From Candidatus Borrarchaeum weybense (GTDB lineage Archaea > Asgardarchaeota > Sifarchaeia > Borrarchaeales > Borrarchaeaceae): a stretch of 64,000 nucleotides of DNA. A program made the position numbers. Below are positions 48,001-60,000 of this stretch, one piece after another (within the stretch, counting starts at the first letter, position 1; the number at the start of each line of letters is the position of its first letter). Where the stretch lies: contig JAHQJS010000007.1 in the NCBI GenBank assembly GCA_019057385.1, forward strand, positions 96,001 through 160,000. Reading direction: 5' to 3'.

Positions 48001-51000
48001 TCAATTTTGTTCTGTCCGTAATATCGATGTTTTACTAGATATGCAGCTAAGCAGCCTGCAGCACTTCCTGTGGCAGGATCTTCAGGAACGCCGTAATAAT
48101 AGGCAAACATCCTGACATGAACGTGATTTTCTTCGTACTGAGTCTCGGGGCAAAAGACATGTACAGCTTTAGCTTGTGTTTTTTTAATCAAACGGAAATA
48201 TTCCTCCGTATTGACATTAATTCGTTTTATTGACTTAAGTGTCCGTATTGGAACTATAATGAATGGAACTCCAGTCGACACTTCTTGGATGGGAAATCGA
48301 TTATCTATTTCGTTACTGTCGATATTAAGGACTGTTGATAGTGCATTAATAGACAATTCTGATCCAAAAGTCGGTTCCTTTTGTTTCATCACTAAATTGT
48401 CCAATTCTCCATTTTTATAATGGAGATCGATAGGAATTTGACCAACTTTCAGATTCAAATTCACTAATTCAATAGGTTGCTTGATGATCTCTCTTTGGAT
48501 AATATAGGCAGTGCCTAAAGTAGGATGTCCTGCAAACGGCACCTCACTTGCAGGTGTGAATATTCTTACATCATAACCATTGTTTTCAGGTATATCTGAT
48601 AAAATGAATGTCGTCTCTGAAAAATGCATTTCTTTTGCGATAAGCTGCATCTCTTCATCAGAAAACTTATATCCATCCCTAAAAACCGCTAATTGGTTTC
48701 CTGTGTACTTTTTCTCTGCAAAGACATCTACAATATAGAATTGGTGTCCTTTCATTTTGATCCTCTCCTATTCGAATTTTTACTTAAAGTAATTTTTATA
48801 TATTTCATAAATATGAGGTAACGTTCAATATATGAGGTAACGTCCAATTACGAAGAATAGTGTATCAAAAATGTGGCACTCTATTAAATCGTTTCATAAC
48901 GCATTACTCAAAAGCATTCGCTTCAAACTTTTCATAGCCGTTTATATTATATACCAACTCGGAATTGGATGGGGCGTCCATCAAATGGACGAATGGGCTC
49001 ATTACATAATGATCATCGCCCTCGTTGAAGATAACACCTTTATAGTTACCAAGTATGTACACTATATTTATTTTACAGTTGGTTTTTATGAGGGAAATTA
49101 TTATGTCGCCAAAGCACCAGGATTAAGTTTTTTGGGAATTCCAATTTATATGCTTCTAAAAATTCTAGATGGATATGTGAGTTTTCCGAATCATTATCAA
49201 TATATTTTGATCTCTTTCGTAGCAGTAATTTCAGCCTTAACAGTTGTTTTGGTACATGATGTCTGCCGCTTGCTAAATTGTAGTGAAAGAACAAGTATAT
49301 TAACTGCTATTCTTAGTGCATTTGGTATAGCTTGGACTCACTCTAAGAGATTTGAGGATGGGTCGGTATCTCCGTTTTTTTTACTTATGGGCATTTATCT
49401 GTTAATGAAAGTAACCCGTAACCAGCTGCCAGAGAAGGAAGAAATGAAGTATCTTGCTTTTGCTGGTGTTTCAATAGGATATGCCCTTTTGGTAGAATAT
49501 ACAAATGTTATCCTGTTAGTACCCATTATTTCATATGTAATTTTCACATACAAAGCTAAAATATTTGGACACAAATTAAGGCAAGTTCTTTGCCTTTTTT
49601 CACCAATCGTCGCAATGGGATTAGTTATTCTTGGTCTCAATCAAATATTGTTTGATTCTCCGTTCTCAACTGCATATACATACCATACTTTTGGACCAGC
49701 CACTGAGTTTTCAATCACATATATTCCACAGGGTCTTTTTAAGTTCTTGATTTATAGTGATCTTGGAGGCGGCAGTTTGTTTTTCTATCAACCGCTAATT
49801 TTCTTTACCTCCACCTTTGGTTTTTTCAAAATGTATAAATTGTTTAAAAGAGAAACACTGCTCTTTATAGCATCAATTCTGTTGAACATCTTGTTTTTTT
49901 CGATGCGTGTAGATTTAGGCGGGGGATTTCATTACATTGGCCCTGGATACATTCATCCTGTTTTGCCATTGCTTATCATTCCCACTGCCCTAACTATTGA
50001 AACATTTAATGCAAAAAGCGTTTCTATTTTTCGAAGAAGAATCTTCTGGTCAGTATATCTTGGATTATTCGCTTTTAGTGTTGTGGTTATTGGAGCATGT
50101 GTATTGGCGTATAACTTCACGATTTTAAATCTTCCTATTGCATATATTGGGGCATTTGAATTATTGAAAAGCGGATACCTTGATCCGAGGCTTTTGAAAC
50201 ATAGATTTCTTCCATCTATTCTTGTTGGTATATTGTTATATGTAGTTTTTTGGGATCGTCGAGGTACTCTAAAAAGCAGATTACGAAAGATGTTTGGCAT
50301 TAAAAAAAAGAAGAATGAACTCTCATAACCGTATGATACTTCTTTAAATATGAGAGAGCTTAAGTAGTTTTTTCAATCTCTTTTACAACCTCTGAAAATA
50401 TTTCTAACCCTTTTTCAAGTAATTCTTTTGTTATAGTCAAGGCAGGGATAAAACGTGCAACATTTATCCAGTGACCTCCCTTCCAAACGATTACACCACG
50501 TTCAAAGCACTTTGCAACGATTTTCTTCAGAAGATCTTCAGCAGGCTTTTTACTATCTTTGTTCTTAACAAATTCTACCCCTAAAAATAGCCCTTTGCCA
50601 CGAACATCACCAATGCAATTAACTTCATCTTGTAGATCTTTTAGCAATTTAAGCGCATAATCGCCAAGTTCTGCGGATCTTTTTAGAAGTTGAGTTTCTT
50701 CTGTGAATTTAATGGCCGCAGCACCTGCAGCACATCCAAGAACATTTCCTCTAAATGTTCCCATGTGCCCACCTGGACCCCACGCCTCATCGAACTCTTT
50801 TTTATACATCATCCCTGCTATTGGGATTCCAATTCCTCCAAGTGATTTCGCCATAGTAATAGCATCTGGTGTAACATCGAAGTGTTCGCAACTCCACCAA
50901 TATGTACCAGTACGTCCGAATCCGGCTTGAACTTCATCACAAACAAATAGAATATCGTTTTCTTTGCAGAGTCTTGCTAAACCCTGAATAAACTCCTTTG

Positions 51001-57000: not shown

Positions 57001-60000
57001 CAAATGAGAGATCTTCGCGATGAACTTGAGCTTGGTTCTGTTACCGCACTTCCAGGAAAGGCCAAAGGTATTGAGGCAAAAGCTAGAATCGCAGATCTGT
57101 TTGATATTAAAATCAATTCTGTGGAAAGGCTTAAGAAGAAACTTTCTTTAGACTTTTAGCATAGTGCTGGCAACGAAATCAACTGAAAGATCGGCAAGGC
57201 TTGATTGGGTTGATTTCAGATGGGCTCACCCCCGCAAGGGGTCAGCACATTTATTATTTCTGCCTATTTTTGAATAAAAAGATAGAAAAAAATTAAATCG
57301 CTTTTCTGCGCTTTAAAATAACAATTGCACCAATTAATGAGACTGCAACTCCTGATCCTATCGCTCCAAAGAGATACAAATTTATGTTGGAAAATAAGGC
57401 CGTTTGTGTTTCACCTTCTACATAACTCGTGGTCGATGAACCAATGTTTACTCCCCCTTCTCCTTCTCCCTTTCCTTTTACCCTTTTGAAATTTTCTAAA
57501 TCGGCATTTCGGCAATTTGTTCTATGCTGAAAAAGAATCATTTAAAAACTCCAACGGCACTGATCTGTGATTTATACAAGAAGTCAAAAGAAATAGGAAG
57601 GTGGTACTTTGTCAAAATTATTCGAACCCTATGATTTCTGTGGTATTAAACTAAAAAACAGATTTATTCGATCAGCAACCAGTGAAAATTTGGCTAAAAA
57701 TAGATTACCTACTGAACAATTGTTTAAATTATACAAAGAACTTGCTCGTGGTGAAATAGGGTTAATCATTACAAGTGCAATGCGACCTGATCGAACTTGG
57801 ACAAGAGGACCGCAACAAAAGAATATGGTTATTGATAGTGATGATTCGATTCCTAATTTTAGAGAATTGACTAATCTTATGCATTCCTTTGGTTCTAAAG
57901 TCGCATTACAGTTAGGTTCATTTTTCGTTTTTAACGGCGAATCTGTTGCCCCCTCTGCTATACCATATACTTGGATTCCTGGTGTTACGCCCAGGGCTTT
58001 AACAATTCAAGAAATTAGAGAAATAGTTGAAATTTATGGTACTGCTGGAGCACGGGCTAAAAAGGCGGATTTTGATGCAGTTCAGATTCATGCAGCACAT
58101 GGATATCCTCTTTCTAGATTTCTCTCACCACGTTTCAATAAAAGAACGGATGAATATGGAGGTAGCCCTAAAAATAGAGCACGCATTATAATAGAGATAG
58201 CAACTGAAATAAAAAAAAGAGCAGGAAGCGATTTTCCGGTTTTTGTTAAAATGGGCGTGGTAGATTTCTGTGAGGGAGGATTGACAAAAGAAGATGGAGT
58301 AGAGGTCGCAAAAGCTTTATCTCAAAATGGTGTCTCCGCAATTGAAACTTCTGCCGGGACACCTGGTTCAGAAATGAATGCCCTTGGTGCAACAAACAAT
58401 TCTCGATGGACAGAAGGTTATTTATTGGATTATGCAGCGGCAATAAAAGCAGAAGTAGATGTACCAGTTATTTTAGTCGGTGGGCTTCGTGATTTAAGCA
58501 TGATGGAAGATATTATCTCCCAAGGAAAAGCTGACTTAGTTGCAATGAGTAGACCATTTATCATTGAGCCTCATCTCATCAAAAGATGGAAGGAGGATGG
58601 AGATCAAGAGCCCTCACATTGCATATCGTGCAATGGATGTATGGATCTCTATATGGATGGAGAAATTGTAGAATGTATCATTTAATAGTGTTTATTAATC
58701 AGCTTCATTAGAATTTTTTACTTCTTTTCTTCTCATGGCTTGATTTGTCTATAAACACTGCATAAAGCAAAAATCAGCTAAATGTAAAAAGATAAAAGAC
58801 TGAAATATCATCCTTCTAAAAAAAACTAATATTTCTAGGATGTGAGTATAAGTGGATAATTCAGATATGGAAAAACAATTCTCTATCAAAAGAATAGTAC
58901 TCTCAATTCTGGCAATCCTCTTTACTGCTTTCGTGACTTATAATATGACCGTTCCTTTGTACAACTATTGGGCACCAGCGATTTTTGCAGCATTCCTTCT
59001 GATTATAATTAACAGAATCCATCTACTCAGATATCTGAATTTTCTGTTCCGAGTAAGAATGAGATCTAGACCTTCTACGGTTGGTGTTATATTTGTCCTG
59101 ATTTTCATACTTGCTTCTAGTTCCTCAGCAATTACTTGGCAATATAACTTCTATGTCGCGAACAGATTTGTTGACGAACTTGGATTAGAACTCTCAGATG
59201 TTGAAACACCGTTCACACAAGGAATAACGCCAGATGCTGTTCGTTTGGTTGACAGAGATTTAGCTTATACTATAGCCCAAAAGCACAAGGCAACTTTTAC
59301 TGCAAGCGCAGTACTCGGGTACGAACAGATCGGTGTGTATCAAGGACATGAAGCTTGGTATGTGCCCGTCATCGAGGAGACCCTGAATTCTATGAGAGTG
59401 AGAGCAGTTGGTTTTATCATAATAGACGTTAATAAGCCATTTCAGCAACCGACAATAATCAAGTATAATCAAGAAGCAACAGTTATGCCAGATTTGTTAT
59501 GGTATCGAAATCCTGATTATAAACTTTACAATCAAGATCAAAATAGGTATTATGGCAGAAATTATTACACAGAAATCGACGGCGAAATTCGTGTTATTGT
59601 GTTGTCCCATAACGGTTTTCTATATCCCCATGATGCAAAGGTTCATGTATTAAGTTTAGATGGCAAAGTAATCGAAGAACTCTCACCTAATGAAGCATAT
59701 CTTAAAGGTATTCCACAGGTCTTGGACGAAGAGAACTACATCGAGTTCTACGAGAATGCTTTCAGTGGATTTCTAATGAAAGATAAAAGTCTGGATATGT
59801 GGGCAGGATATCTAAGTGAAAAGGATACGTTTGAACCTAGTGAAATCCTTCGTTATCTTCACGACCAACAAACAGGCACAACAATTGCCATAACAACAAC
59901 TCACCCAACTAGCAATCCTTCAACAATGCACGGAATGTTCATTTGGCGTGGTACAAACGTTACTTATCACAATTTACGAAGGGCAAGCTTTATCAGCGCC

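Follow-up and report, generated by a model that had tools for sequence, protein, structure and literature searches.

A 64,000-nucleotide stretch of the genome of Candidatus Borrarchaeum weybense (assembly GCA_019057385.1, contig JAHQJS010000007.1, positions 96,001 to 160,000; hereafter the window) places a glutamine synthetase (GS)-like ligase gene, GSL1, directly upstream of mtbC and mtbB, which encode a corrinoid protein and a pyrrolysine (Pyl)-containing methyltransferase of the dimethylamine family, with two omega-aminotransferase genes, AT1 and AT2, divergent from them (Table 1). All genes of this set, which an original prediction from the DNA alone had described as lying between 50360 and 57159, were found there. 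That prediction had proposed a hybrid pathway in which MtbB passes methylamine to GSL1 acting as GmaS, the ligase of the bacterial N-methylglutamate route. We arrive at a different picture. Judged by its sequence, GSL1 is a GlnA2/PuuA-like gamma-glutamyl-amine ligase and not a GmaS, and the reading that we favor, at roughly even confidence, is that of a composite amine-utilization island: two separately conserved units that were joined, and are probably co-transcribed, in the genus Sifarchaeum, to which this organism is assigned, with no obligatory hand-off between them. The analysis establishes what the genes are, where they fall within their families, how they are distributed and in what order they lie; co-transcription, the substrates and any hand-off between the units are inferences. 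The genome amounts to 4.18 Mb in 8 contigs; in what follows, G denotes a genome (G000 being that of the window), C a contig and L a compared locus.

Identity of the Ligase

The original prediction that GSL1 is not an ammonia-type GlnA, lacking the DGSS signature and the EAP flap and carrying WAP, is borne out. The true GlnA of this genome, encoded on contig C4, has the motifs FDGSS and YEAP, where GSL1 reads LDHLV and SWAP. At the ammonium-site positions (D50-G-S-S53, N264, and E327), all of which are retained in GlnA, GSL1 has D-H-L-V, A264 and W327, while its metal, ATP and glutamate ligands are all intact (E129, E131, E212, E220, H269, H271, R321, R339, R344, E357, and R359). A GlnA identity for GSL1 was rejected because the canonical enzyme is present on C4 and the ammonia-site residues are replaced in GSL1, which is instead of the gamma-glutamyl-amine ligase type.

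Among the curated NCBIfam ligase models, GSL1 matches that of gamma-glutamylputrescine synthetase best (NF045547, 416 bits), followed by GlnA (TIGR00653, 308.8 bits) and GmaS/GlnT (TIGR03105, 286.3 bits); the respective cut-offs are 650, 429, and 469.6 bits, so that even the best match stays below its threshold. Scores against solved structures rank the archaeal and Bacillus GS (267 bits) above the GmaS structures 9QUR (204 bits) and 7CQL (143 bits), whereas a bona fide GmaS, verified by its gene context, reaches 341 bits against 9QUR and 623 bits against 7CQL. The best annotated homologue, from a plasmid collection, is the glnA2 product of Haladaptatus, a gamma-glutamylputrescine synthetase with 39-40% identity. 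Glutamate-putrescine ligase activity has been shown for the GlnA-2 of Haloferax mediterranei (PMC8394153).

The ligase tree (47 sequences; branch support from the Shimodaira-Hasegawa-like approximate likelihood ratio test, SH-aLRT) tells the same story. GSL1 falls within a clade of 18 uncultured archaeal proteins (SH-aLRT 99), which nests in a group of 37 that includes the GlnA2 type as represented by Haladaptatus GlnA2 (SH-aLRT 96). The GmaS references of Paracoccus and Aminobacter, whose identity was verified by context (both genes adjoin mgsABC, that of Aminobacter also mgdABCD), form their own long-branch clade outside this group (SH-aLRT 100). An 11-residue insertion in the N-domain ahead of the D50 position is present in GSL1, its paralogue GSL2, PuuA and GlnA2, and missing from GmaS and GlnA. 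GSL2, which shares 39-43% identity with GSL1, has WAP as well.

GSL1 thus resembles haloarchaeal GlnA-2 and Escherichia coli PuuA in its branch of the GS superfamily, its best-matching hidden Markov model (HMM), its loop insertion and its loss of the DGSS/E327 ammonia site. In Haladaptatus, glnA2 is likewise clustered with another GS-like gene and with genes for an M20 hydrolase, a permease and an amidohydrolase, an arrangement like that of the GSL2-M20-MPE2 block and the Amidohydro_2 gene of the window, where GSL1 has an amine-catabolic context of AT1, AT2, Amidohydro_2, M20 peptidase and APC permease. The likeness has its limits, as GSL1 shares no more than 39-40% identity with the Haladaptatus enzyme and stays at 416 bits against the family cut-off of 650. 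Unlike the PuuA route, the locus is devoid of a PuuB-type oxidase and of PuuD, and has instead aminotransferases and an M20 hydrolase, the place of the latter being taken in relatives by GGT. With GmaS (7CQL, 9QUR), GSL1 shares membership of the ATP-dependent gamma-glutamyl ligases of the GS fold and the W-A-P that replaces the E-A-P flap; GmaS differs in having no loop insertion and in carrying A and K where GSL1 retains D50 and Y179.

Genes for the remainder of an N-methylglutamate route were not found. Neither mgsABC nor mgdABCD is present in the window, and the genome-wide search returned no MgdB or MgdD, with weak partial matches for MgdA (24%) and MgdC, and hence no N-methylglutamate dehydrogenase. 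Two split glutamate-synthase-like sets on contig C4, 27-33% identical to MgsABC, each comprise three genes (amidotransferase, flavin mononucleotide domain and GXGXG; G000:C4:681509-684676 and 708042-711019). The two sets share their gene order and the second abuts the true GlnA gene; we take both to be probably ordinary archaeal glutamate synthase (GOGAT).

Model scores, structure scores, homologues, tree, loop insertion and the missing dehydrogenase all point to a GlnA2/PuuA-like ligase, and GmaS was rejected as an identity on the HMM and solved-structure scores, the tree, the insertion and the missing mgd genes. This bears directly on the pathway of the original prediction, by which MtbB makes monomethylamine and GSL1, as a GmaS, forms gamma-glutamylmethylamide for an N-methylglutamate-type route or for nitrogen capture. 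We regard that pathway as very unlikely. The W-A-P flap with S53 and N264 replaced would suit it, as would the homology of the C4 sets to MgsABC, the lack of a Pyl-containing MtmB (below) and the adjacency and probable co-transcription of GSL1 and mtbC, but the ligase falls far short of the GmaS model (286 against 469.6 bits) and outside the GmaS clade, carries an insertion that GmaS does not have, and scores lower against GmaS structures (143-204 bits) than against true GS (267 bits), while the dehydrogenase subunits are missing or weakly matched and the C4 sets look like GOGAT from their shared gene order and their GlnA neighbor.

Distribution of the Ligase-mtbC Linkage

Named organisms among the 4 congeners are Ca. 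Sifarchaeum marinoarchaea and Ca. Borrarchaeum yapensis. The synteny search covered these congeners together with 80 loci from genomes, 6 contigs from metagenomes and 4 additional loci from Bathyarchaeia. The arrangement of AT1-AT2 divergent from GSL1-mtbC-mtbB is present in three of the four congeners. The fourth, G001 (locus L018, G001:C107), has a clean deletion of ∼1.3 kb corresponding to window positions 53504-54807, which removes GSL1 apart from its last 27 codons and leaves mtbCB and the intergenic region ahead of the ligase in place. A second clean deletion in G001, of ∼0.9 kb (window 57693-58628), takes out the OYE-family gene that follows mtbB. The flanks of the deletions are 80-88% identical to the window. 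Together with a PMT gene that is present or absent, the two deletions make this a variable region among the congeners.

Outside the genus, no GS-like gene was found within 10 kb of MtbB at any of 78 other MtbB loci or on any of the six metagenomic contigs that carry the closest MtbB relatives. A conserved ligase-MtbB synteny was accordingly rejected, the pairing being confined to the genus across the searched loci. Homologues of GSL1 with 49-56% identity cluster with aminotransferases, GGT, Amidohydro_2 and a trio of permease, phosphoesterase and nucleotidyltransferase genes, and no MtbB lies within 8-10 kb of them. In 40 other Asgard genomes we found no MtbB and no GSL1 orthologue, the best GSL1 match there being 39% or less. 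Of 301 Bathyarchaeia genomes, 4 encode MtbB and 5 a GSL1-type ligase; a single genome has both, on different contigs, against an expectation of ∼0.07, counts too small to bear a conclusion. The Amidohydro_2 protein of the window is 36-40% identical to those beside the GSL1 homologues and 33% identical to that of the Haladaptatus glnA2 cluster. No GGT was found in the genome of the window itself.

Taken together, linkage and distribution indicate that ligase and MtbB are mostly independent, and that their juxtaposition is an event specific to Sifarchaeum. The original prediction had staked itself on a linkage conserved in relatives and on the absence of mtmB elsewhere in the genome. The linkage is not conserved; mtmB-family genes do occur elsewhere, in forms without Pyl. 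With the pairing limited to one genus and a ligase that is by its sequence no GmaS, the hybrid pathway is unproven, and it is further opposed by the retention of mtbCB without the ligase in G001 and by the presence of GSL1-type ligases mostly in genomes that have no MtbB.

The same distribution raises the question of whether the juxtaposition is purely an accident of rearrangement, for example by recombination between homologous trios, so that the two units share neither regulation nor metabolites. The trio adjoins ligases in L022-L026 and L140 and MtbB or pyl genes in L028, L037, and L149, and the Bathyarchaeia genome G041 has it twice, once with a ligase (C30) and once with MtbB and pyl genes (C5). 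Homologous trios thus flank both kinds of unit, even inside one genome, which, with an adjacency seen in one genus only and a region that varies among congeners, favors an accident. We nevertheless consider a mere accident quite improbable, given the recurrence of neighbors of the ligase-unit type beside the MtbB clade in several arrangements, as well as two features of the ligase-mtbC junction, its tight and conserved layout and the position in which the G001 deletion leaves mtbC.

The GSL1-mtbC Junction

The gap of 33 nt between the two genes, noted in the original prediction, was confirmed: the TAA stop of GSL1 occupies 54887-54889 and the TTG start of mtbC is at 54923 on the same strand. 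The true mtbC start may lie closer still. The codon 7 nt past the GGAGGG motif is CTG in the window and TTG in G001, and a start there would be at 54908, with a gap of 18 nt. We note that the GSL1 TAA and the mtbC reading frame share a frame, with no further stop between them (54887-54925). The order of stop, Shine-Dalgarno-like motif and start is tight and is kept in the four congeners. T-runs and a TATA-like box sit between mtbC and mtbB, where mtbC ends 215 nt upstream of mtbB; no T-run sits between GSL1 and mtbC. From this layout, GSL1 and mtbC are probably co-transcribed, and the mtbC-mtbB spacer may act as a partial terminator combined with a promoter of its own for mtbB. The G001 deletion puts mtbC straight behind the ligase promoter, which suggests that this promoter serves mtbC.

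MtbB and the Methyl-Transfer System

The mtbB product matches TIGR02368 with 514.3 bits (cut-off 369.1) over profile positions 7-465 of 466, and is the sole PF09505 match in the genome. Its reading frame contains a single in-frame TAG (56812-56814, residue 348), which aligns with the Pyl column of 79 other MtbBs. The mtbC product passes TIGR02370 (242 bits, cut-off 215) and stays under the cut-off of the MtbC equivalog NF041607 (226 against 350 bits). The whole of pylT, pylSn, pylSc, and pylBCD is within the window, and elsewhere the genome has six matches to the URO-D family (MtbA-like) and two RamA-type activases. No MttB and no MCR were found in the genome.

The statement of the original prediction that the window contains no mtmB is correct, and the genome search extends it: nowhere in the genome is there a Pyl-type mtmB to consume the monomethylamine expected from MtbB. 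Three genes of the MtmB family, none of them with an in-frame stop, lie at G000:C4:944965-946341, 879930-881324 and 811255-812700 (L120, L121, and L122), and an alignment of one of them to the Methanosarcina barkeri structure shows His in place of Pyl; a canonical mtmB elsewhere was rejected on these grounds. Two of the three have a corrinoid protein as partner, and one of these two pairs adjoins genes for DUF2284 and a cobalt energy-coupling factor (ECF) transporter. The third is in an operon with a thiamine pyrophosphate enzyme, an enolase-superfamily protein, a cupin and a class-V aminotransferase.

Much of this system has been described. Sun et al. (ISME Commun 1:30, 2021, PMC9723677) reported for Sifarchaeia a complete Pyl system with pylS and pylBCD split by ∼6 kb, MtbB as the sole Pyl protein, and MtmB homologues, and assumed dimethylamine to be the MtbB substrate. 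Genus, genes, MtmB homologues without Pyl and a non-methanogenic genome are the same here, and so is the ∼6-kb split with an NAD-kinase-like gene between its halves. The ligase and aminotransferases beside mtbCB are not mentioned in that paper, in whose text neither "glutamine synthetase" nor "aminotransferase" occurs. Compared with MtbB1-3 and MtbC of Methanosarcina, the system shares the Pyl column, the adjoining corrinoid protein, 47-50% identity, and homologues of MT2 and RamA in the genome. It differs in belonging to a distinct clade with 12 signature substitutions, in a genome that lacks MCR, Pyl-MtmB and MttB, and in having amine-catabolic genes for neighbors where Methanosarcina MtbB has other methylamine methyltransferases.

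A Distinct MtbB Clade

In the MtbB tree, the window protein belongs to a nine-member clade (SH-aLRT 100, stem length 0.27) made up of Sifarchaeum, Bathyarchaeia, a second Hydrothermarchaeum copy and one Nitrospiraceae contig, apart from the MtbBs of methanogens, Actinomycetota, Bacillota, and Desulfobacterota. An aminotransferase, GGT, phosphoesterase, nucleotidyltransferase or GS-like gene is found within 10 kb in 8 of the 9 clade members and in 4 of the 74 sequences outside, the nine being not independent of one another and standing for about six lineages. All or nearly all clade members depart from 73 other MtbBs at twelve positions where conservation among the latter is at least 93%; among these signatures are H361Y and P354A/V, shortly after Pyl, others in the 151-158 loop, and residues 246, 335, and 380. 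The nearest relatives of the window MtbB (52-59% identical) lie among pyl genes with the trio, GGT or an aminotransferase, and never near a GS-like gene. On contig L031, an AFOR gene, an AT1-like aminotransferase (54% identity), pylS and other pyl genes, and mtbCB occur together.

Two types of MtbB coexist on MTMF02000009.1 of Ca. Hydrothermarchaeum profundi, the canonical-like L062 and the clade copy L066; at the latter the corrinoid gene is divergently oriented and a class-III aminotransferase lies ∼3 kb away. In L084 (the deltaproteobacterial metagenome-assembled genome (MAG) CP070652.1) and L107 (a Peptococcaceae MAG), a class-III aminotransferase gene immediately precedes that of MtbB, in the same orientation. 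These two loci are outside the archaeal clade, and their aminotransferases are 47% and 36% identical to AT2, respectively.

Such a clade could have departed from dimethylamine, in line with the alternative offered in the original prediction, by which an N-methylated diamine or polyamine is acted on by MtbB and then glutamylated and transaminated. Its MtbB would then demethylate another N-methyl amine (a diamine, a polyamine or an amino alcohol) imported by the adjacent APC permease, and the primary amine so formed would be gamma-glutamylated by GSL1 and/or transaminated by AT1 or AT2, with oxidation of the aldehyde. The distinct clade, its 12 signature substitutions and its 8/9 against 4/74 neighbor counts all speak indirectly for this, as do the two MtbB types of Hydrothermarchaeum with an aminotransferase beside the clade copy, the union of genes on L031 and the upstream aminotransferases of L084 and L107. 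Against it stand the score of this MtbB, which exceeds the equivalog threshold (514 against 369 bits), its identity of 47-50% to the Methanosarcina enzyme, the absence of the ligase from every clade locus outside Sifarchaeum, and a neighbor count that has just about six lineages behind it; to our knowledge, no MtbB-family enzyme with another substrate has been described. On balance we hold this alternative, another substrate whose product is glutamylated or transaminated, to be rather unlikely. A fuller version, in which the clade of Sifarchaeum, Bathyarchaeia, and Hydrothermarchaeum would be a Pyl-dependent demethylase for a larger N-methyl amine taken up by the neighboring APC permease, with a product gamma-glutamylated, transaminated and aldehyde-oxidized anaerobically, is something of a long shot.

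A Proposed Composite Amine-Utilization Island

The composite island that we favor would consist of two gene sets, each of which is conserved on its own in further uncultured archaea, chiefly Bathyarchaeia. The first is the Pyl machinery with mtbC and mtbB, usually accompanied by genes for an APC permease, a metallophosphoesterase-like and a nucleotidyltransferase-like protein. Here, MtbB with its Pyl residue would remove one methyl group from a secondary methylamine, dimethylamine by family assignment, and load it onto MtbC, and the MtbA-like methyltransferases and RamA-type activases encoded elsewhere would complete the set. The second comprises GSL1 with its paralogue GSL2, the omega-aminotransferases, the Amidohydro_2 protein, and an M20 hydrolase that may replace GGT. 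It resembles an anaerobic route of the Puu/GlnA2 type, in which a primary amine or polyamine would be gamma-glutamylated, transaminated and then hydrolyzed. As neighbors that are probably co-transcribed, ligase and mtbC would answer to a shared amine or nitrogen signal. In such an arrangement the ligase may capture the primary amine left by MtbB but need not do so.

Several observations weigh against such a loosely coupled island. Instead of two tidy units, the window has its Pyl genes, mtbCB and ligase-type genes interleaved over three separate blocks; such an order would fit selection for clustering and hence a real metabolic link. In a genome without Pyl-MtmB, monomethylamine is a dead end unless GSL1, an aminotransferase or the like takes it. 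The clade-specific neighbors and the 12 signature substitutions suggest that the MtbB substrate may not be dimethylamine at all. GSL1 itself is under the cut-off of every curated ligase model.

Features of the Window

The coordinates of the genes and spacers discussed above are collected in Table 1. The trio at 34348-37976 may have a part in uptake or in covalent regulation. The best NCBIfam models for AT1 are NF004426 (428 bits) and a diaminobutyrate transaminase model, both under cut-off, whereas AT2 passes NF004426 (653.8 bits, cut-off 552). On the 3′ side of mtbB and the OYE gene, an open reading frame of 557 residues (58852-60525) has an 88% identical copy in G001; neither Pfam nor NCBIfam yields a match for it, and it does not resemble GGT.

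Table 1. Genes, Spacers, and Other Features of the Proposed Amine-Utilization Locus in the Window
Feature	Coordinates	Strand	Evidence or remark
Nucleotidyltransferase-like gene (trio member)	34348-35160	+	Pfam matches weak or partial
Metallophosphoesterase-like MPE1 (trio member)	35169-36128	-	Pfam matches weak or partial
APC-family permease (trio member)	36309-37976	-	Pfam matches weak or partial
pylD, pylC, pylB	38109-41210	-	TIGR03911; TIGR03909 and TIGR03910 over cut-off
Amidohydro_2-family protein, of the ligase-type gene set	41312-42571	-	PF04909 E 4.6e-17
pylSc	46593-47420	-	TIGR02367/TIGR03912 over cut-off for pylSc and pylSn
pylSn	47441-47725	-	TIGR02367/TIGR03912 over cut-off for pylSc and pylSn
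tRNA-Pyl (pylT)	47743-47811	-	ARAGORN: tRNA with CUA anticodon
AT1, class-III (omega) aminotransferase	50360-51766	-	PF00202 (Aminotran_3) E 2.4e-103
AT2, class-III aminotransferase, archaeal GABA/ornithine-type family	51893-53236	-	PF00202 (Aminotran_3) E 1e-123
AT2-GSL1 divergent intergenic region (promoter)	53237-53530	.	Still present in congener G001
GSL1, GlnA2/PuuA-like gamma-glutamyl-amine ligase (by sequence)	53531-54889 (alternative GTG start 53519)	+	PF00120 (Gln-synt_C) E 1.5e-104
GSL1-mtbC spacer, 33 nt	54890-54922	+	GGAGGG Shine-Dalgarno-like motif, without T-run
mtbC, cognate corrinoid protein	54923-55555 (CTG start at 54908 possible)	+	PF02607 and PF02310
mtbC-mtbB spacer, T-rich	55556-55770	+	Several T5-T7 runs, TTTAAAAAA box, AGGAGG ahead of mtbB
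mtbB, Pyl-containing dimethylamine:corrinoid family methyltransferase	55771-57159	+	PF09505 E 3.8e-176
MPE2, second phosphoesterase	60546-61523	-	
M20 peptidase	61731-62828	-	
GSL2, second GS-like ligase	62883 to ∼64265, past window end (whole: G000:C7:158883-160265)	-	

Implications

The novelty of this locus lies in the genus-specific pairing of the ligase with mtbCB and in the distinct, context-rich MtbB clade; its Pyl/MtbB part has already been described in print, and the ligase family was known before. The analysis leaves the attractive hybrid of GmaS and the N-methylglutamate pathway without support and puts in its stead a putative polyamine-type ligase belonging to a separately conserved archaeal amine-catabolic set. 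It also places the MtbB of Sifarchaeum in a distinct, mostly non-methanogen archaeal clade with a neighborhood and signature residues of its own. Sifarchaeia keep the full Pyl machinery for MtbB alone, without a Pyl-MtmB for the monomethylamine released. Were a larger N-methyl amine to prove the substrate, Pyl methyltransferases would gain their first new class of substrate, and it would become clear why non-methanogens maintain an entire expansion of the genetic code for the sake of one protein. The substrate of this MtbB and the fate of its product decide what these Asgard archaea contribute to the turnover of methylated amines in marine sediments.

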